The notes under the pieces: model-generated
What the model was told of the DNA's origin: nothing
Database searches by the model: none
Seen by the model: the letters and a program-made list of their open reading frames with translations, nothing else
Program-made: the position numbers and the translations under genes
From: an uncultured Clostridia bacterium
GTDB lineage: Bacteria > Bacillota > Clostridia > Christensenellales > Borkfalkiaceae
Length of the DNA stretch: 64,000 nucleotides
NCBI GenBank assembly: GCA_944327625.1
Contig: CALVHL010000025.1
Location: 19,648-83,647, forward strand
Direction: 5' to 3'
Part shown: in pieces, positions 45,337-56,155 of the stretch
Layout of the letters: the number at the start of each line of letters is the position of its first letter
Position numbering within the stretch: the first letter of the stretch is position 1

Positions 45337-47283
45337 CTATTCCCCTTCCTGCGCCTCGTCCCTGTACTGTTCGGGTATGGGTACGGCGTTGGACGAAGGG
45401 GCGGCTATCCTGCCCTCGCAACGGGCGAATAACCGCGAATATATCCTGTCGGCGACGGTAATCTTTTCCTCGACGGGCTTACCCGTCTTCTTGTCGATGC
45501 GCCTGCGGGGAGGGTTGACGAACTCCTCGGGAACCTGGTCTATCGTCTGCCAGGTCGCCATGGCTTCTTCCATGGACATACCGCCGCGGACGGCAGCCTT
45601 GCGCACGGCGTTGACCGCCTGCACTTCCCTCAGCTTTTCGCCCGACAGGCTGTACCGCGTCATGCAGAAGGTCGTAATGAGCCACGCCGTCATGGGCAGC
45701 AGGCAGAAGCAGATTATCGCCGACAGCTGCATGCCCTCCATATAGGGCGTGCTCTCCGCGGGCAGAGCCGTGAGATCGGGCACGAGCAATACTATGAAAA
45801 GCTGCAAGAGCAGCGTCTGGAGCGAGGATATTACCTTGTCGACGAGCGAGAATATCGTACCCATTATGCCGGGAACATACTTGCCCGAACGGTAGGTCTC
45901 GAAGTCCGTACAATCGGCGATCATTGGTATGGTCAGCTGGTCGCAGCAGTTGAACGCGCCGTATCCGCAGCCGTATAATACTATGAACGCTATCGTGTAG
46001 AAGTTTATCGTCAGGTGGAAGCCGCCTTCCATCGAGAATATTTTAAGGTACGTGGCGGGGTTTTCGTGGTCGTATATGCAGAGCAGCGCGAGCACGCCGA
46101 TATAGAACAGTATGGCGAGCACGGTGAACTGCGCCACGCCGCGCTTCTGCCCCTTTCTGCCCGCCGTAGCCGAGCCCCAGAAGAAGAATATCGCCATAAA
46201 GACGAAGCACAGCGCATAGAAGGGTATGTACAGCCCGTTATAGTCGCCCATCAGGCACCCGTAGACGAGCGCGGCGACGGGTACGCTCGTGGCGACCGTC
46301 GAGGCGAGCTTATTGAAGCCCGACGACAGCATCAGCCAGCGTATTTCCTTGTTGCCCTTTATTATGCCGATATAGTCTTTGAGCTTTGCGGGCTCCTGCG
46401 CGACGCCCCAGAATTCGGGGCGGTCTTTCGACCAGATCGCCGCAACCGCCATGACGGTATAGGCGGCCGACAGCACGATGACGAACGGCACCATTATGTC
46501 GTAGAACTGCGTGCCGTAGGGCGCGCCGTAGTTGTATGCGTACAGCTTTGCGGGATCGAGGTTGAGCGCAGTCAGCTTTCCGATGAGCGTCCTGCTCCCC
46601 TCGGGATCGAGCCCCGCGATTATGTCGGAGACGAGCTTTCCGCTCTCCGACTCGTAGACGATAAGTCCCTTGGCGCAGAGCGCCTCGTTGGTCAGCACGC
46701 CGCCCGCCATTACGTTGACGAGCACTATCGAGCCTATCTGACCTATCATATTCCAGATAACGAACTGCGAACGCTGTTTGGGATCGTTGGTGAGGCAGGT
46801 CTGCCCCGCCTTGGTGACGGCGCACTGGCAGGTGTAGCCGAGCACGTAGATTATGTAGGATACGATATATATCGTCCAGCGCACCCACGAAACGCCCACC
46901 CCGCGGAAGAAGGTCATCATTATGAGCACGGACAGCGCGAGCAGCACGTTGCCGATTATCATATACGGACGGAACTTGCCGAGCCTCGTCTTCGTCTTGT
47001 CCATCATTCCGCCGAGCAGGGGATCGGTTATGCCGTCGAATACCCTCATGCAGGGCACGAATACCGCCGTGAAGTTGGAGACGGTCATGACGAGCGCGGC
47101 GCTGAGCACCGTGCCGGCTATCGCGCCCGCCGCACTGCCCGTCAGGTACAGCACGGCGTAGTAGGTGAAATAGGTATAGAACGCGAAGTATACGTTGGTC
47201 GCGGCGTTATTGAAGGGGAAAAGCGCAATCTGCCAGCCCTTCGCGCGGTTGACGGCGCGGGTACCCGCTGCGCTGCCGTCCAT
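45337..47283 (-). CDS. glycoside-pentoside-hexuronide (GPH) family cation symporter with a cytoplasmic C-terminal tail of about 100 aa
   Basis: 12-TM MelB/UidB-like protein. Its start abuts the stop of the upstream SDR gene. Confidence 0.8.
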   Translation of the reverse strand: MDGSAAGTRAVNRAKGWQIALFPFNNAATNVYFAFYTYFTYYAVLYLTGSAAGAIAGTVLSAALVMTVSNFTAVFVPCMRVFDGITDPLLGGMMDKTKTRLGKFRPYMIIGNVLLALSVLIMMTFFRGVGVSWVRWTIYIVSYIIYVLGYTCQCAVTKAGQTCLTNDPKQRSQFVIWNMIGQIGSIVLVNVMAGGVLTNEALCAKGLIVYESESGKLVSDIIAGLDPEGSRTLIGKLTALNLDPAKLYAYNYGAPYGTQFYDIMVPFVIVLSAAYTVMAVAAIWSKDRPEFWGVAQEPAKLKDYIGIIKGNKEIRWLMLSSGFNKLASTVATSVPVAALVYGCLMGDYNGLYIPFYALCFVFMAIFFFWGSATAGRKGQKRGVAQFTVLAILFYIGVLALLCIYDHENPATYLKIFSMEGGFHLTINFYTIAFIVLYGCGYGAFNCCDQLTIPMIADCTDFETYRSGKYVPGIMGTIFSLVDKVISSLQTLLLQLFIVLLVPDLTALPAESTPYMEGMQLSAIICFCLLPMTAWLITTFCMTRYSLSGEKLREVQAVNAVRKAAVRGGMSMEEAMATWQTIDQVPEEFVNPPRRRIDKKTGKPVEEKITVADRIYSRLFARCEGRIAAPSSNAVPIPEQYRDEAQEGE

Positions 47284-48111
47284 TTATACCCCCGAATATG
47301 CCGAGAAGCCGCCGTCGACGGGTATGCACACGCCCGTCACGAAGCCGCTCGCCTCGTCGCTCGCCAGCCACAGGAGCACGCCGTAGAGGTCCTCGGGCTT
47401 GCCGAATTTCTTTTGCGGAGTTGCGGCGAGTATCTTGCCCGTCCTCGCCGTCGGCGTGCCGTCGGGGTTGAACAGCAGTTCTTTATTCTGCTTTGTGACG
47501 AAGAAGCCGGGCGCGATTGCGTTGCACCTTATGCCGCAGGGCGCAAAGTGCACGGCGAGCCATTCGGTGAAGTTGGTAAGCCCCGACTTTGCCGCGCTGT
47601 ATGCGGGTATTTTTGTAAGCGGGCGGTATGCGTTCATCGAGCTTATGTTGATTATGTTGCCGCCCGTGCCTATCATATCCTCGGCGAATACCTGCGTCAC
47701 GAGGAACGCCGTCGTTATGTTGAGGTCGAACACGAACCTGAACCCCGCCTCCTCCATGTCGAAGAAGGACTGACCGCCGTCATAGTCGGGCGTCATGGTC
47801 TCGCAGGCGGTCTGCGCCTTGGCGTTGTTGCCGCCCGCGCCGTTGATGAGGAAGTTGACCTTGCCCCACTTGTCGTTGATCTGCTTCTTTGCAGCGATTA
47901 TGCTCTTTTTGTCGAGGCAGTCGCACTGCACGGCGAAGGCGTTTTCGCCTATTTCGTCGGCGTACTTCTTTGCGCTGTCGTAGGACCTGTCGACGAGCGC
48001 GACCTTTGCGCCGCACTCTGCAAGCGCCTTGGCGAACCCGCTCATCAGCACGCCGCCCGCGCCGGTTATTGCAATTACTTTATCCGATAAATCGACTTTG
48101 AATGGTATCAT
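47284..48111 (-). CDS. SDR family oxidoreductase (probable UxuB-type mannonate/fructuronate oxidoreductase)
   Basis: TGAGGVLMSG Rossmann motif and the YSAAK catalytic motif. The specific function is inferred from adjacency to uxuA. Confidence 0.7.
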   Translation of the reverse strand: MIPFKVDLSDKVIAITGAGGVLMSGFAKALAECGAKVALVDRSYDSAKKYADEIGENAFAVQCDCLDKKSIIAAKKQINDKWGKVNFLINGAGGNNAKAQTACETMTPDYDGGQSFFDMEEAGFRFVFDLNITTAFLVTQVFAEDMIGTGGNIINISSMNAYRPLTKIPAYSAAKSGLTNFTEWLAVHFAPCGIRCNAIAPGFFVTKQNKELLFNPDGTPTARTGKILAATPQKKFGKPEDLYGVLLWLASDEASGFVTGVCIPVDGGFSAYSGV

Positions 48112-50182: not shown

Positions 50183-50465
50183 GAAAGACTTTCGGCAATA
50201 ACATTTTCTGTTTTTTACCAACATATAGTAACACACTTTTCGTCATTTTACCATTGTAATTTCAATAAGTGCCGCATTGCATTTTTATGCGTAATTTGCG
50301 CGGCATTTCGCGCATATTTTTAAATTTTGCGGCAATTTAAGCTTATTTTTGCGACTTATCGCATATTACAGGCATTTACGACAAATTCACCCCGACAAAA
50401 ACCGCAATGACGGGGCGCTTTTCGGGCATAAAAGCGATCAGTATTTTTTTGAGAGGCTGTCTGCA

Positions 50466-51131
50466 ATGCAGAACAAATTTACCGTAATAGACACGGCGAC
50501 GTGGAAGCGCCGCTCAGTATACCGCAAATTCATCGGCTATACCAACCCCGTCTTTTCGCTGAGCACGCGGCTGGACGTAACGCCGCTTTTTATGCGCTGC
50601 GCAACCCGAGGCACTTCTTTCTTCACAGATTTTCTGTATATAGTGACGACCTGCCTGAACGACGTAGAGGAATTCAGGCTGCGCATAGCGGACGACAAGG
50701 TAGTGCTGTTCGACAGGGTTGAACCGAGCTTCGTCGTCATGGCGGACGACGGCTTCATAGTCACTGCGCGGACGCGCGGGGAGAGCGGCTACGCCCCCTT
50801 CTACGCGGCGACGCGGGCGGCGATAGAGCGCGCGCGGCAGTCGTCGGGCGCCGCAGATTTCGGCGATGATTCGGCAGACTGTTTCTACGTATCCTGCCTG
50901 CCGTGGGCGGACATACGCTCGATAATCAACCCGTACGACCTCAAAGACGTCTGCGCCACCAGCATACCGCGCATAACGTGGGGCGCCTATGCCGACAACA
51001 ACGGCAGAAAGGAAATGACGCTGGACATCTCCGCGCACCACGCTTTAATCGACGGCGAACCGCTGTGTAGGACGTTCAGGGCAATACAGTCGGCAATTTT
51101 CGGCGGCGACGAATGGTTTGCCGCAAAATAA
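50466..51131 (+). CDS. chloramphenicol acetyltransferase (CAT, type A)-like acyltransferase
   Basis: CAT-like N-terminus (IDTATWKRRSVYRKF...) and the catalytic-His motif SAHHALIDGEP. I chose the ATG at 50466. Confidence 0.75.
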   Translation: MQNKFTVIDTATWKRRSVYRKFIGYTNPVFSLSTRLDVTPLFMRCATRGTSFFTDFLYIVTTCLNDVEEFRLRIADDKVVLFDRVEPSFVVMADDGFIVTARTRGESGYAPFYAATRAAIERARQSSGAADFGDDSADCFYVSCLPWADIRSIINPYDLKDVCATSIPRITWGAYADNNGRKEMTLDISAHHALIDGEPLCRTFRAIQSAIFGGDEWFAAK

Positions 51132-51159
51132 AAGGCGAAAAATACGGATAAGGTACACT

Positions 51160-52503
51160 ATGAAGGATAAAATATTTATAATCTGGAGCGGAACGAACGA
51201 AATAGCCCTCAAGGTCAAGCACATTCTCGAAACCAAGAACTATAAGTGCACCATAGGCGGCAACGCCGACAACAGCTCTACCTTCGCCTCGGTCGGCGAT
51301 ACGGTCATTCAGCAGATAAAGAGCTGCAATCAGGCGATAATAATATTCCAGAACAGGGCGGACGGAATGGTGAGCAATAATCTGTTCTTTGAACTGGGGT
51401 ACGTGCTCGCCTCCTACGGTCAGCCCAAAATTCACTGCGTCAAACGCGCGGACGAGGCGGTCGTGCTCCCCTCCGACTTCGATAATTCCTTCGTGGAAAA
51501 CATACCCTGCTCCGACGACGAACAGTTCGTCAACGGCATTATCGACTATTTCTTCGCAAGGCAGAAGATGTCGATAAATACCAACAAGATGCTGCTCATA
51601 AATAACCGCTATAAGATGCACGACTATATACAGCGCCACTTTTCCGAACTCGGGAGCAAGTGCTCCGACTATGAGCTGGCGCAATACATACTGTTCTATA
51701 TGCAGGCGGGGCACATGTTTGGCGACGAGCGCAAGGTTCAGCGCGAACTTACCAAATTCCGCGACGACAACCACGCTTACTTTTCGGACGAGCTGTCGAC
51801 GGCGGTGGATATTGCGCTGTCGTTCTTCGACATGGTGCTCAACATTAAAACGGCGGACAACGGCGAATTCTATATCGACAGGGCGACTTACAGAAAGTGC
51901 AGGGATACTATGCTCAAATGCCGCGAAGATCTGACCTCGGACGACACGGGCTCTTTCCGCGAATGGGCAAACGCCATACTCTCCGACCATATCTCCTATT
52001 CCAACAGTCTGTATATGTTCTCGCCCGAACTTGACGAAGAAAGAATGAAGAAGATTGCGCAGAGGTGCATCGAATGGAGCACGACGGCGATTGCCGACCT
52101 CGACAATCTGCAAAACAAGACTCCCGTAAGGGACAACAACGACCACAAGGGACTTATTTCGCTGATGTACTCCTACGCATACCGCAATCTGTTCATAAGC
52201 TGCAGAATAACGGGCGACGGCGAGGGCGAACTCAAATGGCTTGAAAAGACCTTAAAGGAGCGCACTTCGCTGAAAAACACCTTCACCGCGGGGAGCATAG
52301 ATTCGCAACTGTACGACAACTTCGCAATGGAGTACTTCCTCTCCCTCGCCGAATATCTCCACTACGCCGACAGGCTGGGATTGGACGAGGACGACATAGA
52401 CTATTACCGCGACGAAATAAAGAAATACATAGACGAATGTAACAAGCGCTCGGACCAGCGGAAGTATTTGGAGCGGATAGAGATGTTCTACCGCAAGGGC
52501 TGA
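51160..52503 (+). CDS. TIR-like (CAP12/PycTIR-type, PF10137-like) domain protein with an uncharacterised alpha-helical C-terminal domain of about 320 aa
   Basis: The N-terminal ~125 aa read KIFIIWSG...AIIIFQNRADGMVSNNLFFELGYVLASYGQPKIHCVKRADEAVVLPSDF. This matches the family pattern vFIvHG...aivLlTpDD...NVifElGyf...lPSDl. I chose the ATG at 51160 (weak RBS); the alternative at 51118 overlaps the CAT gene end. Confidence 0.7.
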   Translation: MKDKIFIIWSGTNEIALKVKHILETKNYKCTIGGNADNSSTFASVGDTVIQQIKSCNQAIIIFQNRADGMVSNNLFFELGYVLASYGQPKIHCVKRADEAVVLPSDFDNSFVENIPCSDDEQFVNGIIDYFFARQKMSINTNKMLLINNRYKMHDYIQRHFSELGSKCSDYELAQYILFYMQAGHMFGDERKVQRELTKFRDDNHAYFSDELSTAVDIALSFFDMVLNIKTADNGEFYIDRATYRKCRDTMLKCREDLTSDDTGSFREWANAILSDHISYSNSLYMFSPELDEERMKKIAQRCIEWSTTAIADLDNLQNKTPVRDNNDHKGLISLMYSYAYRNLFISCRITGDGEGELKWLEKTLKERTSLKNTFTAGSIDSQLYDNFAMEYFLSLAEYLHYADRLGLDEDDIDYYRDEIKKYIDECNKRSDQRKYLERIEMFYRKG

Positions 52504-52555
52504 CGCAGGCAGGCGCGAAAGACACAGTAAAATTTAACTTTCAAGCAAGAGAGAG

Positions 52556-52595
52556 ATAACCCCGCCGCGCAGAAAACTCTGGACGGCGGGGTTAT
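52556..52595. terminator. hairpin between the convergent TIR-like and LOR genes
   Basis: The stem-loop is ataaccccgccg-N16-cggcggggttat. The T-run is weak. Confidence 0.5.
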
Positions 52596-52712
52596 TTGCG
52601 CTTAATTTATCCATTACACAGCTACTATACTTTATCAACGCCGTTCAATGCGCCTCTAAAATAATGCAACCCGCTGAATTTCTCCCGCACTATGCGGCGA
52701 TTACCGCGTCTT

Positions 52713-53201
52713 TCAGGAGCGATTCTTGTCGTTGATATTGTCTATGGCGATGACCAGCGCGACGAGCAGCGGCGCGTCCTCGTCGTTGTAGCTGACGAGC
52801 GTGAAGCTGTCGACGAGCGAGACGAACTTCTTGCCCACCTCGCCTATCTTTTCGCCGTTCTTGAATATTTCGAGGCAATGCTGAATGAAGTCGCCCTTGA
52901 TCTCGATTTCGTCGGCATAGCCGAGGAGAATAAACTCCTTCTTGAATATCTTGAACTTCTGCTTTATGCGCGCGACCTTGTTGCCGTCCGCGTCGTATAT
53001 GTAACAGCTGTTGGTGAGAAACCTGATGAGCTTATTCTTTATCGTATACAGCAGGTTACCGTCGAGGTCGTAGACCTGCTTTTTTCTGCGCAGCGAAAAG
53101 ACCGCGCCCTTGACGATAAACTTATCCGCCCCGTTTTCGTCCTGAACGGTCGACTTGCCCGTTATGGAAAACATCTTATTTTTAATGACAAGAGTAATCA
53201 T
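52713..53201 (-). CDS. LURP-one-related (LOR)/tubby C-terminal-like family protein (YxjI-like)
   Basis: 162 aa: MFSITGKSTVQDENGADKFIVKGAVFSLRRKKQVYDLDGNLLYTIKNK...YIYDADGNKVARIKQK. This is the typical YxjI/DUF567 pattern. RBS AAAGGAGAGG. Confidence 0.75.
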   Translation of the reverse strand: MITLVIKNKMFSITGKSTVQDENGADKFIVKGAVFSLRRKKQVYDLDGNLLYTIKNKLIRFLTNSCYIYDADGNKVARIKQKFKIFKKEFILLGYADEIEIKGDFIQHCLEIFKNGEKIGEVGKKFVSLVDSFTLVSYNDEDAPLLVALVIAIDNINDKNRS

Positions 53202-53213
53202 ATTCCCTCTCCT

Positions 53214-53717
53214 TTAAAAGAAGTTTGCAATTATTGCTATCGCGCAGCCTATTATGCACAGCCACGCAACGAAGCGCAGCCAGTTGACTATCTTGCGGCG
53301 CTTTTTAAGTTTTGCCGTATTGACGTATTCGTTTTCGCGTATTTCCGTCTCGGTCGCACAGCTCAGTCCGAGCGCGGGCGAGCCCTCCCCCTTCTCGCGG
53401 AGGACGGTCGCGACGATAGTATCGTCGCCGCGGGGGTGAAGCACCACTTCAAACGCTATCTCCCTCAGATATTTGCCCCTGCCCCAGTCGAATATGCCGA
53501 ATACGCTTACGACGAAGAAGACAAATTCCCACAGCAGCCAGAGCGGGCTTGATATTATTTCCCAGGTATAAATTTTTAAAACCGAGCCCTCGGTCGCCTC
53601 GAAATTGCCCTCGAGGTTGCCGAAGCTGTTTTTTCTGAGCTTTACTTTCTGATCGTCTATCGTGGCGAGCGGCGATACGCCCGCCGCGCCCTTAATACTC
53701 AATTTTATTCTGCTCAT
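53214..53717 (-). CDS. hypothetical 2-TM membrane protein
   Basis: 167 aa. ATGA overlap with the upstream gene. No recognisable motif. Confidence 0.55.
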   Translation of the reverse strand: MSRIKLSIKGAAGVSPLATIDDQKVKLRKNSFGNLEGNFEATEGSVLKIYTWEIISSPLWLLWEFVFFVVSVFGIFDWGRGKYLREIAFEVVLHPRGDDTIVATVLREKGEGSPALGLSCATETEIRENEYVNTAKLKKRRKIVNWLRFVAWLCIIGCAIAIIANFF

Positions 53718-54142
53718 TGTACCACCAACCTTGAAAATATGACGATCGCAACGGTGAGTACGGCGAACACGACGGACAATACTATCTTTGCGACGTGCTT
53801 TTTCGGCCGCACTTCAAGGGAGAGCAACAGCACCGCCAGAACGGCCGCCGCAACGCCTATGCCCGCGAAATAGGGCATGGCGACGAGCGCCGTCTCGGTA
53901 AAACTGCCCATGAATTCAGTCGAATTGGTAAAGAACCCGCCGAAATCGTCAACCATGACGAAAATTGTGCCGATCGTTATGAGTACGATAAATATCAGCA
54001 CGAGCAGGTACAGCGCAAACAGGAAGGGCGTGAACGCCGTAAAGAGCGTCAGAATTGTGCATACGAGGCTTATGCCGAAAAAGATATTGCCCAGCCTGAC
54101 CACACCTATCCTCAGTCTATCACCCGAAGTCAATTTTTTCAC
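53714..54142 (-). CDS. hypothetical 4-TM membrane protein
   Basis: The track start at 54142 is a GTG that abuts GGAGG. A TTG at 54131-54133 has better spacing, so the start is uncertain. Confidence 0.5.
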   Translation of the reverse strand: MKKLTSGDRLRIGVVRLGNIFFGISLVCTILTLFTAFTPFLFALYLLVLIFIVLITIGTIFVMVDDFGGFFTNSTEFMGSFTETALVAMPYFAGIGVAAAVLAVLLLSLEVRPKKHVAKIVLSVVFAVLTVAIVIFSRLVVQ

Positions 54143-54231
54143 CTCCTGCCGCCAACGGCTTTTTGTGCCTCTATAATACCATAGCCCGCCCCGCCTGTCA
54201 ATATGCCAAATTTCGATTAAACAGGCATTTT

Positions 54232-54273
54232 AATACAAAAAATACAGAGAGCGGCGCATTTTGCGCCGCTCTC
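54232..54273 (-). terminator. rho-independent terminator of asnS
   Basis: The minus strand reads gagagcggcgca-aaa-tgcgccgctctc followed by tgtatttttt. Confidence 0.8.
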
Positions 54274-54351: not shown

Positions 54352-55720
54352 CGCCCTTGGCGCGAGGGAATACCTGCGTGTCGCGGATATTGCCCATGCC
54401 CGTTACGTACATGAGTATTCTTTCCAGCCCCAGCCCGAAACCGCTGTGGGGAACGGAGCCGAACTTGCGGAGGTCCATATAGTTTTCATAGTCGCTCATC
54501 TTCATTCCGCGGTCGGTTATGGCTTTGAGGAGCTTGTCATAGTCGGCCTCGCGCTCGCTGCAGCCGATTATCTCGCCCACGCCGGGAACAAGAAGGTCGG
54601 TAGCCGCAACCGTCTTGCCGTCGGGGTTCTGCTTCATATAGAAGGACTTGATCTCCTTGGGATAGTTTACGACGAATACGGGGCGGTTGTAGACGACGTC
54701 GGTGAGGTATCTCTCGTGCTCGGTCTGCAAATCCAGCCCCCATTCGACGGGATAGACGAACTCCTTTCCGCTCTTTTTGAGTATTTCAATCGCCTCGGTA
54801 TAGTCCACCCTCGCGAACTCGTCGTCGACGACCTTCTGGAGCTTTGCCCTCAGCCCGGGCTCGTAGAACCTTTCGAGGAGCGCGAGCTCGTCGGAACACT
54901 CGTCGATGACCGCCTTTATTATATATTTGATGAACTCGGTGGCGATTTCGATGATGTCGTCGATTTCGGCGAACGCAACTTCGGGCTCAATCTGCCAGAA
55001 TTCCGCCGCGTGGCGGGTGGTATTGGAGTTCTCGGCGCGGAAAGTCGGACCGAAAGTGTAGATTTTGCCGAACGCCATTGCCATCACTTCGCCCTCGAGC
55101 TGACCGGAGACGGTAAGCCCCGCGCTCTGACCGAAGAAGTCGGCGGCGTTATACTCCTCCAAGCTCTTGTACTCGGGCGCATAGCCGAGCGTAGTCACCT
55201 GGAATATCTTGCCCGCGCCCTCACAGTCGCTGCCCGTTATTATGGGCGTGTGAGCGTAGATATAGTTCCTCTCCTGAAAATAGCGGTGAATTGCCGCCGA
55301 AATTCTGCTCCTTATTCTGAAAATGGCGTTGAACGTGTTGGTGCGCACGCGCAGATGAGGGAGCGTGCGGAGATAGTCGAGCGAAGTCTTGGCTTTCTGA
55401 ATGGGATAGTCGAGCGGGCAGTCGCCGAGGAGCGTGACCTCTGCGGCGTTGACCTCTACCGCCTGATTTTTATTGAACGACTTTACGGCCTCGCCGCAGA
55501 TTTTAACCGACGAGCCGACGCGCGTCGCACCCTCGGGCAGAGCGACGTTGGCCTTATCGATGACTATCTGCAAGTGGCTGAGCGTCGTACCGTCGTTGAG
55601 CGCGATGAAAGCCATATTCTTGCTGTCGCGGAAAGAGCGTATCCAGCCGCAGACCGTGACGTTCCTGCCGAAGAATTCTTCGGGCGCGGACATTATGTCC
55701 TTGATGTCGGTATGTTTCAT
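54341..55720 (-). CDS. asnS: asparagine--tRNA ligase
   Basis: Class IIb aaRS of 459 aa with N-terminal OB fold (VCGWIRSFRDSKNMAFIALNDGT) and ending ...VFPRAKGELR. The ATG at 55718-55720 follows AAGGAG; the track's extension to 55894 is rejected. Confidence 0.9.
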   Translation of the reverse strand: MKHTDIKDIMSAPEEFFGRNVTVCGWIRSFRDSKNMAFIALNDGTTLSHLQIVIDKANVALPEGATRVGSSVKICGEAVKSFNKNQAVEVNAAEVTLLGDCPLDYPIQKAKTSLDYLRTLPHLRVRTNTFNAIFRIRSRISAAIHRYFQERNYIYAHTPIITGSDCEGAGKIFQVTTLGYAPEYKSLEEYNAADFFGQSAGLTVSGQLEGEVMAMAFGKIYTFGPTFRAENSNTTRHAAEFWQIEPEVAFAEIDDIIEIATEFIKYIIKAVIDECSDELALLERFYEPGLRAKLQKVVDDEFARVDYTEAIEILKKSGKEFVYPVEWGLDLQTEHERYLTDVVYNRPVFVVNYPKEIKSFYMKQNPDGKTVAATDLLVPGVGEIIGCSEREADYDKLLKAITDRGMKMSDYENYMDLRKFGSVPHSGFGLGLERILMYVTGMGNIRDTQVFPRAKGELR

Positions 55721-55860
55721 TATAGAGTTATCTCCTTGATTTTTTACCTTATTATTTCCGCCGCTCAACGCGGCTTTATTATTCTCTTTTCCCCGATTGA
55801 ACGGCACATATCCCCGCCCCAATCGGTTTTTTACAACCCTGCTTCCCAAATAATTATGTT

Positions 55861-56155
55861 GCGCAAGCAAAATCGCCATTTTGCGCCAGCGCACCGCATT
55901 TGTGGCTTCGCCACCTCGGTAGGTGAAGGCGGCGCAATTATTATATTTGAGAGCACTTTAAGATTGCGCCGCCGAGGACGAGGGCGGACTTCTCAAAATG
56001 TGCCTCGGCTTGGCACATTTTGCCGACCGAGATAAGTCCGACACATCAGGTCGTGGCGGACGATGACCGAGCAAGGCGTTGCCATTACGCCTTGCGAGAA
56101 AGCGCCCTCAACCTCGTCAAATTTGTTTTCGTCACCAGAAAACAAATTTACGAAA
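55861..56155 (-). repeat. sixth copy of the multi-hairpin element, on the opposite DNA strand to the str copies, with an expanded second hairpin
   Basis: The minus strand starts GTTTCGTAAATTTGTTTTCTGGTGACGAAAACAAATTTGACGAGG. It ends ...GGCGGCGCAA-N-TTGCGCCGCCTTCACCTACCGAGGTGGCGAAGCCACAAATGCGGTGCGCTGGCGCAAAATGGCGATTTTGCTTGCGC. Confidence 0.85.

Follow-up and report, generated by a model that had tools for sequence, protein, structure and literature searches.

Several immune systems that signal through nucleotides have as their effector a fusion of a TIR-type N-glycosidase to a sensor domain, and the TPR-gated ThsI and BcTpr have been validated only recently. In type VIII Thoeris the TIR protein ThsB makes canonical cyclic ADP-ribose (cADPR) on infection, and the effector is ThsI, a 'CMP hydrolase and TPR' protein, the TPR part of which has been proposed to perceive cADPR (10.64898/2025.12.03.692087). 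In BcTpr a MilB-like N-terminal glycosidase depletes NAD+, with N82 and E86 essential as judged by mutation, and the protein binds cADPR with a dissociation constant of 1.9 µM prior to NAD+ binding; it has also been reported to produce a cADPR isomer itself, and 29 of the 78 'core Tpr' genes stand alone, the others being accompanied by assorted accessory enzymes (10.1101/2023.05.26.542521). Here we analyse a 64-kb stretch of DNA from an uncultured Clostridia bacterium (contig CALVHL010000025.1), hereafter the window, positions in which serve as coordinates throughout. It encodes a protein, termed TIR-TPR below, in which a TIR-like domain is followed by a TPR-like α-solenoid and the gene of which forms an operon with that of a CAT-family O-acyltransferase. 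The literature open to searching yielded no description of this family and no link between CAT and TIR-like genes.

The TIR-TPR protein

The open reading frame (ORF) at the locus is 51118..52503 on the forward strand, beginning at an upstream TTG. The ATG at 51160, which gives a protein of 447 amino acids, is the supported start because all homologues open with MK(D)xIF(I)AWSG. The gene and its parts are as follows.

51160..52503, + strand: TIR-TPR gene, 447 amino acids (ORF, homologues, AlphaFold2 model)
51160..51570, + strand: N-terminal TIR-like, predicted N-glycosidase domain, residues 1–137, PF10137 (Pfam, Foldseek)
51373..51399, + strand: predicted catalytic motif S72-N-N74-L-F-F-E78-L-G80 (conservation)
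51571..52500, + strand: C-terminal TPR-like α-solenoid, residues 138–447, putatively ligand-sensing or regulatory (AlphaFold2, Foldseek)

The N-terminal domain is a PF10137 TIR-like domain with a near-invariant predicted catalytic glutamate. Residues 4–108 match this family (CAP12/Pycsar-effector TIR), scoring 40.7 bits where the gathering cutoff is 24.7. Conservation was followed in a close set of 60 homologues and in a diverse sample of 68 family members reaching down to 18% identity; full-length homologues number 293, at 50–72% identity. A Pfam scan of the diverse sample finds PF10137 in 67 of the 68 members, and 13 of the 68 weakly match PF05014 (nucleoside 2-deoxyribosyltransferase, the MilB-type family). 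Ser72, Asn74, Glu78, Leu79 and Gly80 are invariant in the close set, and in the diverse sample Asn74 is retained in 66/68, Glu78 in 67/68 and Gly80 in 67/68.

An AlphaFold2 model was built from a 60-sequence alignment (predicted local distance difference test score, pLDDT, 89; predicted template modelling score, pTM, 0.85). In it the N-terminal domain has the order β-α-β-α-β-α-β-β-α over residues 1 to about 137, with Glu78 on the third helix. Foldseek matches this domain in the PDB to the TIR domain of SfSTING/TIR-STING (PDB entries 7un8 and 9lmq) with a probability of 1.0 and an E-value of ∼6e-3, and a search of a viral library gave both match classes again, TIR-type and TPR-type. The Foldseek E-values for both domains are modest, about 1e-2 to 1e-3, and the template modelling (TM) scores are low because each match spans one domain only. 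Sequence searches of the PDB with the whole protein, the family profile or the N-terminal domain alone returned nothing meaningful, NCBIfam gave no match and PADLOC matched only PycTIR, weakly (16.7 bits, E 9e-4).

The C-terminal ∼310 residues are all-helical in the model, with about 14 helices and pLDDT mostly above 90. Foldseek matches them in the PDB to LGN/Pins and to designed TPR and helical repeats (probability ∼1.0, E 1e-2 to 5e-2, TM scores 0.3–0.5). Pfam finds nothing in this part of the window protein, and sub-threshold matches to TPR_1/2/8/10/12 occur in just 2–6 of the 68 diverse members. Searched alone against 1.84 billion representative proteins, the C-domain profile retrieved only 120 representative clusters, nearly all of them proteins of 430–480 amino acids in which the domain begins at about residue 140–160; PF10137 is found at the N-terminus of 19 of the 20 distant members tested. 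Taken with its near-universal presence in the diverse sample, this makes the protein an obligate fusion with a private TPR-like domain. The polar invariants of the close family in this domain are GSxCSDYELAQY, W269, NND328xxG331, Y339 and R342. Polar invariants in such number would be in keeping with a fixed small-molecule ligand rather than a fast-evolving phage protein.

These results bear out most of what had been proposed for the protein in a sequence-only reading of the same DNA. The motifs quoted there (KIFIIWSG, AIIIFQNRADG, NNLFFELGYV, LPSDF and RDNNDH) are all in the translation, the assignment of the N-terminus to the CAP12/Pycsar type agrees with Pfam and Foldseek, and the glutamate named as catalytic is Glu78. 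The remaining ∼320 residues had been described as helical and free of recognised motifs, as found here. Sensing had been assigned to this domain should the gene serve defence, and this is plausible for a TPR-like solenoid obligately fused to PF10137. Caution over a HEPN domain at RDNNDH was also justified: Arg324 is arginine in 12/60 and His329 histidine in 33/60 close homologues, both are gone in distant members, and the HEPN reading is rejected.

One further ORF contains the C-terminal domain. At L067:936-3908 (L numbers denote compared loci) a 990-residue ORF has a DEAD/Helicase_C (Lhr/Cas3-like) helicase in frame with a segment equivalent to residues 167–447, at 34% identity, and no TIR-like domain. 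Known from one 4-kb contig, it may have arisen by true domain swapping, by truncation and fusion or through misassembly, and it was set aside as evidence of domain modularity.

The CAT-like partner and the operon

Immediately upstream of TIR-TPR, with 28 nt between its stop codon and the ATG, lies the gene of a putative acyltransferase.

50466..51131, + strand: CAT-family O-acyltransferase, 221 amino acids, first gene of the operon (PF00302, linkage)

This protein matches PF00302 with 82 bits. The NCBIfam CatA and CatA-like models score 57–94 bits against cutoffs of 250–300 bits (the best 93.9 against 270), and because these scores are far under the cutoffs the protein falls outside all named CatA families and is no predicted chloramphenicol-resistance gene product. 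By its sequence it is best placed in the Pfam CAT superfamily and in no narrower family. Its catalytic set, H191-H192-x-L-x-D196-G197 with S143 and R15, is conserved in at least 95% of 62 homologues. Our searches recovered just 62 clusters of this small subfamily, which is mostly linked to TIR-TPR; many share contigs with TIR-TPR homologues.

Linkage was assessed in 59 loci from species-representative genomes, plus further metagenomic contigs. In 42 of the 59 the CAT-like gene directly precedes TIR-TPR in the same orientation, with gaps of 4–117 nt, and 17 are without it. It is also directly upstream in L070, L072 and L075–L078, and its stop codon overlaps the TIR-TPR start codon in L070, L072 and L077. 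The linkage spans Bacteroidaceae, Bacilli/Erysipelotrichaceae and Clostridia and extends to TIR-TPR members just 25–29% identical to the window protein. The closer the CAT of a locus is to that of the window, the closer its TIR-TPR tends to be as well (Spearman 0.70 between the two identities, n = 42), and in a neighbour-joining tree the linkage runs through the whole family, the deepest branches included, one derived clade having lost CAT. The CAT-like gene is thus a conserved operon partner of TIR-TPR, and the linkage is ancestral and family-wide.

A HAD phosphatase gene precedes CAT in 13 loci, and the ancestral form of the operon probably also had HAD in front; the 64-kb window contains no HAD gene. 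Another, different HAD is directly upstream of TIR-TPR in L021 and L038. In the 661-residue protein P0203 (L074:1061-3046) a HAD_2 domain is fused C-terminal to the TPR-like domain; its N-terminal domain has no Pfam match at E ≤ 0.01, and a gene for an S-adenosylmethionine methyltransferase precedes it. The real unit is therefore a (HAD)-CAT-TIR/TPR operon, 50466-52503 in the window, and not a single gene. The sequence-only reading had recorded the CAT-like gene 28 nt upstream and had taken TIR-TPR for a stand-alone module without a partner. Its observations are confirmed; of its interpretation the TIR-like nature and the accessory character of the gene hold, and the stand-alone module does not, with CAT in most loci, distant members included, and HAD as a frequent third member.

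Two metagenomic loci have a variant arrangement, in which a tandem pair of divergent TIR-TPR paralogues of 491 and 454 amino acids comes after CAT, with overlapping stop and start codons (L075:2808-6365 and L076:1438-4995). This suggests hetero-oligomers or subfunctionalization.

Distribution and gene neighbourhoods

The TIR-TPR operon is accessory and horizontally mobile, not core. TIR-TPR homologues are encoded in 59 of 185,579 species representatives, gut and rumen anaerobes from Bacillota, Bacteroidota and Actinomycetota (one Eggerthellaceae metagenome-assembled genome), plus one archaeal bin. Synteny, the comparison of which had been suggested as a check on whether the gene belongs to a variable island or a conserved core, is variable: the flanks beyond CAT/HAD change in almost every locus. 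Locus L069 is syntenic with L017/L018 (amino-acid identity ∼80% for amylase, ∼84% for YitT, 95% for aldolase and 74% for CAT) as far as CAT; precisely at the 3' end of this gene synteny breaks, and TIR-TPR is absent. Variable flanks together with a close relative that keeps CAT without TIR-TPR define an accessory cassette, not the conserved core gene that would have told against the sequence-only reading. The orphan CAT of L069 (4001-4648) has diverged more from its L017/L018 counterparts than the flanking aldolase has, which could reflect relaxed or altered selection after loss of the partner. The archaeal case is contig NODE_32_length_226979 (L005), binned as a Methanomassiliicoccales archaeon; its TIR-TPR protein is 61% identical to the clostridial one, and this suggests mis-binning or inter-domain transfer.

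Of the genes around 38 non-redundant loci, 149 were surveyed in a census for which the 25 most frequent Pfam/PADLOC families were listed. TIR_2 is the most frequent Pfam family (4/149), and TIR_2 genes adjoin TIR-TPR in about 5–6 of the 59 genome loci. CAT-less or distant members stand beside TIR proteins in L005, L021/L038 (with a NagB-like half fused), L051 (TIR-LRR-CutA) and L064, and the TIR-WD40 protein of L053 is probably a further canonical TIR neighbour. Neighbours with a PF02026 RyR domain, bacterial chromosomal proteins of 97–750 amino acids, are found in at least five lineages (L042, L053, L064, L073 and L077/78); in L077/78 the order is CAT, TIR-TPR and, directly downstream, a 750-residue RyR-domain protein. 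Proteins with this domain bind or cleave 2'/3'cADPR-type immune signals (10.64898/2026.05.28.727677). L042 also has a Macro-domain neighbour, nucleoside hydrolases adjoin in L064 and in L073, where the genes overlap, and NagB/IF-2B-type sugar-phosphate enzymes, an inositol-monophosphatase-like protein and Tpt1 are found in L005, L045 and L052. Judged from their families, the TIR_2, RyR, Macro and nucleoside-hydrolase neighbours appear to point to NAD/ADP-ribose-signal biochemistry.

In L005 (5047-11861), and also in L058, a dense NAD/ADP-ribose-type gene cluster surrounds a HAD-CAT-TIR/TPR operon. It comprises a Tpt1/KptA RNA 2'-phosphotransferase with an HD_4 protein on either side and then IF-2B-like, TIR_2 and inositol-monophosphatase-like genes. 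Another recurrent neighbour, which we call c4, is a protein of ∼700–740 (∼735) amino acids with 3–5 N-terminal transmembrane-like segments; it stands beside the cassette in L021 (141-2336), L026, L037, L038, L039 and L051 and has no Pfam or PADLOC match. Its C-terminus resembles RyR motifs (E/HxRWNA) by eye, BLAST links only the c4-like protein of L053 to a RyR domain, and an assignment of c4 as a RyR protein was not adopted. Defence-type genes adjoin the cassette in L008 (GmrSD, SRA and Fic) and L077 (DNA methyltransferases).

In the window the operon lies between UxuA, adh_short (short-chain dehydrogenase/reductase), MFS and GH2 genes on one side and AsnS on the other, which agrees with the hexuronate genes and asnS named in the sequence-only reading. 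An AraC-type gene is found upstream of the CAT/TIR-TPR unit, as an AraC-type regulator is near the cassette in L055. No cyclase, ThsA, TIR_2/canonical TIR, RyR or Macro gene is present in the 64-kb window, in line with the earlier remark that no cyclase or ThsA partner is adjacent. The other features of the locus are the following.

50297..50314, + strand: terminator-like hairpin after the AraC-type gene (consensus scan: 7-bp stem, 5 GC pairs, T-rich tail)
52549..52603, no strand assigned: hairpin between the convergent TIR-TPR and LOR genes (minimum free energy −33.3 kcal/mol, z = −6.98 against shuffles, UUAUUU after)
52713..54142, − strand: convergent operon M2-M1-LOR, two predicted membrane proteins and a LURP-one-related/tubby-like protein (Pfam, transmembrane-like segments)

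The first hairpin weakly suggests that the CAT/TIR-TPR transcription unit starts downstream of it. The second is probably a bidirectional terminator that closes this unit. The convergent membrane operon had likewise been described correctly: the LOR protein matches PF04525 with 57 bits, and M1 and M2 have transmembrane-like segments and no family match. A LOR homologue of 42–44% identity is also convergent beside TIR-TPR in L047, L061 and L065. All three are from Bacilli/Erysipelotrichaceae, on branches distant from the window protein, and M1 and M2 are not conserved there. The recurrence may reflect a real association or a co-transferred block, and the LOR operon is a possible but unproven associate of the TIR-TPR cassette. 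Two further features lie within 54173-54273: just upstream of M2-M1-LOR a near-consensus sigma-70-like promoter (TTGACA, 17-nt spacer, TATTAT and TG, 11/12 matches) and next to it, between this operon and asnS, a perfect 12-bp GC-rich palindromic, terminator-like hairpin (54247-54273).

The TIR-TPR gene has a GC content of 50.4% against a window mean of 53.9%, and the A/T richness noted earlier by eye is thus real. It is slight (18th percentile of same-size windows), the GC content at third codon positions (GC3) is an ordinary 72.5%, and for these reasons it is poor evidence of foreign origin. Three long ORFs of 356–691 amino acids run antisense to real genes: 51076-52146 (−), opposite TIR-TPR, 46015-48090 and 54446-56035. 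Their translations are arginine/valine-rich and low-complexity-like, in a GC3-rich genome, and they are non-genes.

Proposed function and relation to known systems

The reading that we put first, tentatively, is that TIR-TPR is a ligand-gated NAD+/nucleotide N-glycosidase in an ADP-ribose (ADPR)-centred accessory, probably conflict-related cassette, the CAT and HAD enzymes of which modify the ligand or the ribosyl product. The TIR-like domain would cleave NAD+ or a related ribonucleotide through Glu78, positioned with Asn74. The TPR-like solenoid would be the receptor or regulator for a ribose-nucleotide ligand of the ADP-ribose/cADPR class and would keep the enzyme off until the ligand binds, a gating scheme as reported for ThsI/BcTpr and also for Cap12 and PycTIR, the sensor domains of which are of other kinds. 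Activation would lead to depletion of NAD+ or nucleotide and in turn to growth arrest or abortive infection. The co-transcribed CAT, with HAD in some loci, may O-acetylate or dephosphorylate the ligand or the ribosyl product and so tune or end the signal or protect the cell. The NAD+ substrate, the gating by the TPR-like domain, the targets of CAT and HAD and the anti-phage role are what we infer from the domains, the catalytic residues of both enzymes, the obligate fusion, the operon linkage, the mobility and the kinds of neighbours described above.

Several findings weigh against this proposal. Neither in the window nor at most other loci does a signal-generating enzyme adjoin the operon, CAT and HAD are typical metabolic enzymes, and for neither do we know of a precedent in Thoeris, CBASS or Pycsar systems. 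For an immune gene, the sequence is highly conserved between phyla. No homologue was found in the phage, plasmid and IMG/VR viral-contig collections. The TIR-TPR protein matches no PADLOC system above noise; TIR_2 aside, the census consists mostly of unrelated housekeeping families, its PADLOC hits are generic ATPase/WYL proteins and it showed no consistent defence island, so that such a placement was rejected. A compositional island was likewise considered and gave a weak signal only, the composition being barely atypical. Homology of TIR-TPR to ThsI is not demonstrable: the hhalign probability is 0.4% with shallow alignments and 0.6–1.7% with diverse, per-domain alignments, and no TPR-S match was obtained. 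With neighbourhoods that are mostly housekeeping and no known defence system matched, an anti-phage role is unproven.

Some of the same facts would suit accessory metabolism without phage defence, a reading that we regard as rather unlikely. HAD, CAT and the TIR-like N-glycosidase would then serve the salvage or detoxification of a ribosyl compound, be it a nucleotide, a nucleoside or a derivative of NAD (e.g. a dietary or xenobiotic nucleoside), with the TPR-like domain serving oligomerization or allostery. Partners of metabolic type (CAT, HAD, NagB-like proteins and nucleoside hydrolase), the HAD fusion in P0203, the mostly carbohydrate or housekeeping neighbours with AraC-type regulators near the cassette in the window and in L055, and the location outside defence islands all speak for it, as do the strong purifying selection on both domains, the confinement of the family to gut and rumen anaerobes and the weak matches to PF05014, a family of metabolic N-glycosidases/transferases. 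However, the characterized PF10137 proteins, Cap12 and PycTIR, are to our knowledge all immune effectors, as the Pfam name also implies. An obligate 310-residue TPR module is atypical of a simple catabolic enzyme, TIR_2, RyR and Macro proteins recur as neighbours and suggest ADPR signalling, and the distribution is patchy, with presence/absence polymorphism in close relatives. In another arrangement, which we think distinctly unlikely, TIR-TPR would itself sense infection via the TPR domain and make an ADPR-derived signal that CAT and HAD tailor, to be received by c4, the 750-residue RyR protein or, in the window, the operon of LOR and two transmembrane proteins. BcTpr is a reported maker of a cADPR isomer (10.1101/2023.05.26.542521), and RyR domains recognize cADPR-type molecules (10.64898/2026.05.28.727677). 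Enzymes of tailoring type are tightly coupled to the gene, RyR proteins (directly downstream in L077/78, and in L053 and L073) and c4 (in its six loci) are encoded nearby as candidate receptors, and LOR recurs in two lineages. PF10137 TIRs are nevertheless known as effectors and not as signal makers, most loci, the window included, have no RyR or c4 gene, the LOR linkage is confined to four loci without conserved M1/M2, and acetylated nucleotide signals are without precedent.

The remaining explanations differ in the role given to CAT. The sequence-only reading, an autonomous single-gene abortive-infection protein with all sensing in the C-terminal domain and an irrelevant CAT, would account for the 17 of 59 loci without CAT; the analogous Tpr family includes solitary members at 29/78 (10.1101/2023.05.26.542521), and the domain architecture could in principle suffice. 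It is improbable given that linkage to CAT goes back to the ancestor and extends through the family, the codons often overlapping and the identities co-varying, and that CAT-less members usually have TIR_2, RyR, HAD or nucleoside hydrolase beside them. In a toxin–antidote pair TIR-TPR would be a constitutively toxic NADase that CAT neutralizes, for instance by acetylating the product or a cofactor. The putative antidote gene does come first in a two-gene operon, and L069, with CAT and no TIR-TPR, has the pattern of an orphan antidote. The 17 loci, a whole clade among them, in which TIR-TPR does without CAT, the fact that CAT-fold enzymes are not known as antitoxins and the internal TPR regulator, which makes an external antidote unnecessary, render this very improbable indeed.

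The reading of a ligand-gated N-glycosidase in an ADPR-centred cassette can be carried further. CAT would O-acetylate an ADP-ribose-derived nucleotide made or sensed by TIR-TPR and HAD would trim its phosphate, giving an acetylated messenger or an acetylation off-switch, with RyR or membrane proteins, possibly those of the LOR/two-transmembrane-protein operon in the window, as receptors or effectors. This is a long shot. If true, acetylation would add a further, so far undescribed kind of chemistry to the NAD-derived immune signals of bacteria, and the operon would define a new Thoeris-like class in gut anaerobes. The family-wide pairing with a CAT-fold acyltransferase and with a HAD phosphatase has not been described for immune modules of the ADP-ribose type, in which neither enzyme has a known role. 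An immune function of the cassette would mean host-run enzymatic tailoring or termination of ADPR-class signals, and it would give a first function to an orphan CAT subfamily whose members may be misannotated as antibiotic-resistance genes; a metabolic function would be the first non-immune role of a PF10137 TIR-like domain.

Of the described systems, ThsI and BcTpr resemble TIR-TPR most closely in architecture. All are proteins of ∼400–450 amino acids in which a flavodoxin-like N-glycosidase domain precedes a TPR or, in TIR-TPR, a TPR-like solenoid. The order of secondary-structure elements in the N-terminal domain is the same in the AlphaFold models of TIR-TPR and ThsI, both have the N-x3-E-L-G motif (ThsI consensus NxNAxYELG, TIR-TPR SNNLFFELG) and its spacing is that of N82/E86 in BcTpr. 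Both families are often without an adjacent TIR gene and have variable accessory enzymes, and TIR_2 genes adjoin some TIR-TPR loci. In contrast, the C-terminal domain of ThsI is TPR-S, for which (PF20308) the window protein has no match at E ≤ 1 and which is not among the 25 Pfam families listed for the 68 diverse members; its N-terminal domain is MilB/CMP-hydrolase-like rather than PF10137; and it is mainly proteobacterial and paired with ThsB, whereas TIR-TPR belongs to gut anaerobes and is paired with CAT/HAD. With diverse alignments the hhalign P-values are 0.029 for the N-terminal and 0.056 for the C-terminal domains (range about 0.03–0.09). These non-significant alignments are collinear, pair the catalytic motifs and also place NNDxxG...YRNL of TIR-TPR on the invariant SNDPETxG...KRLW of ThsI. 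The TIR-TPR and ThsI models share only generic TPR matches, and no solved ThsI/BcTpr structure is among the 50 PDB matches listed for the ThsI model; without a shared solved target the two predicted structures are not comparable through one. Membership in the ThsI/TPR-S family was rejected, the results of Pfam and of shallow and diverse per-domain hhalign all being non-significant. TIR-TPR represents a second lineage of the ThsI-type architecture, without detectable sequence homology, in poorly studied gut and rumen anaerobes.

A ThsI-type protein was also met on a conjugative Escherichia coli IncP plasmid (NZ_CP147111.1, L068:2776-5972). It has TPR-S PF20308 at 64.5 bits and no PF10137 match and is encoded with ThsB, next to a second ThsB with a SLATT/DUF4231 effector. 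The two pairs match the type VIII and type VII Thoeris configurations, and recombinase and tellurite/toxic-anion resistance genes adjoin them.

Cap12 and PycTIR share with TIR-TPR a catalytic domain of PF10137 and the structural match to the SfSTING TIR domain, and they would be analogous in fusing an N-glycosidase (NADase) domain to a ligand-sensing one; in TIR-TPR the putative sensor is a TPR-like solenoid and not STING or another nucleotide-binding module. Membership in CBASS was rejected, with no CD-NTase beside the window gene or among the 25 top neighbour families and a C-terminal domain that is not STING, and so was membership in Pycsar, with no PycC cyclase (PF00211) adjacent or among those families and only 16.7 bits to PycTIR. 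RyDEP and other RyR proteins have PF02026 in common with neighbours of TIR-TPR; the latter are bacterial chromosomal proteins, not phage anti-defence proteins, and a corresponding activity is putative. The partner enzyme compares in a similar way with type A CAT and the CatA-like families 1–3: the PF00302 fold, the histidine of HHxxxDG, the serine and the Arg/Asp pair are kept, and the subfamily differs in being small, under all equivalog cutoffs and linked to TIR-TPR. By sequence family the TIR-TPR protein thus belongs to PF10137 only, and by analogy it may work like ThsI/BcTpr and Cap12/PycTIR.

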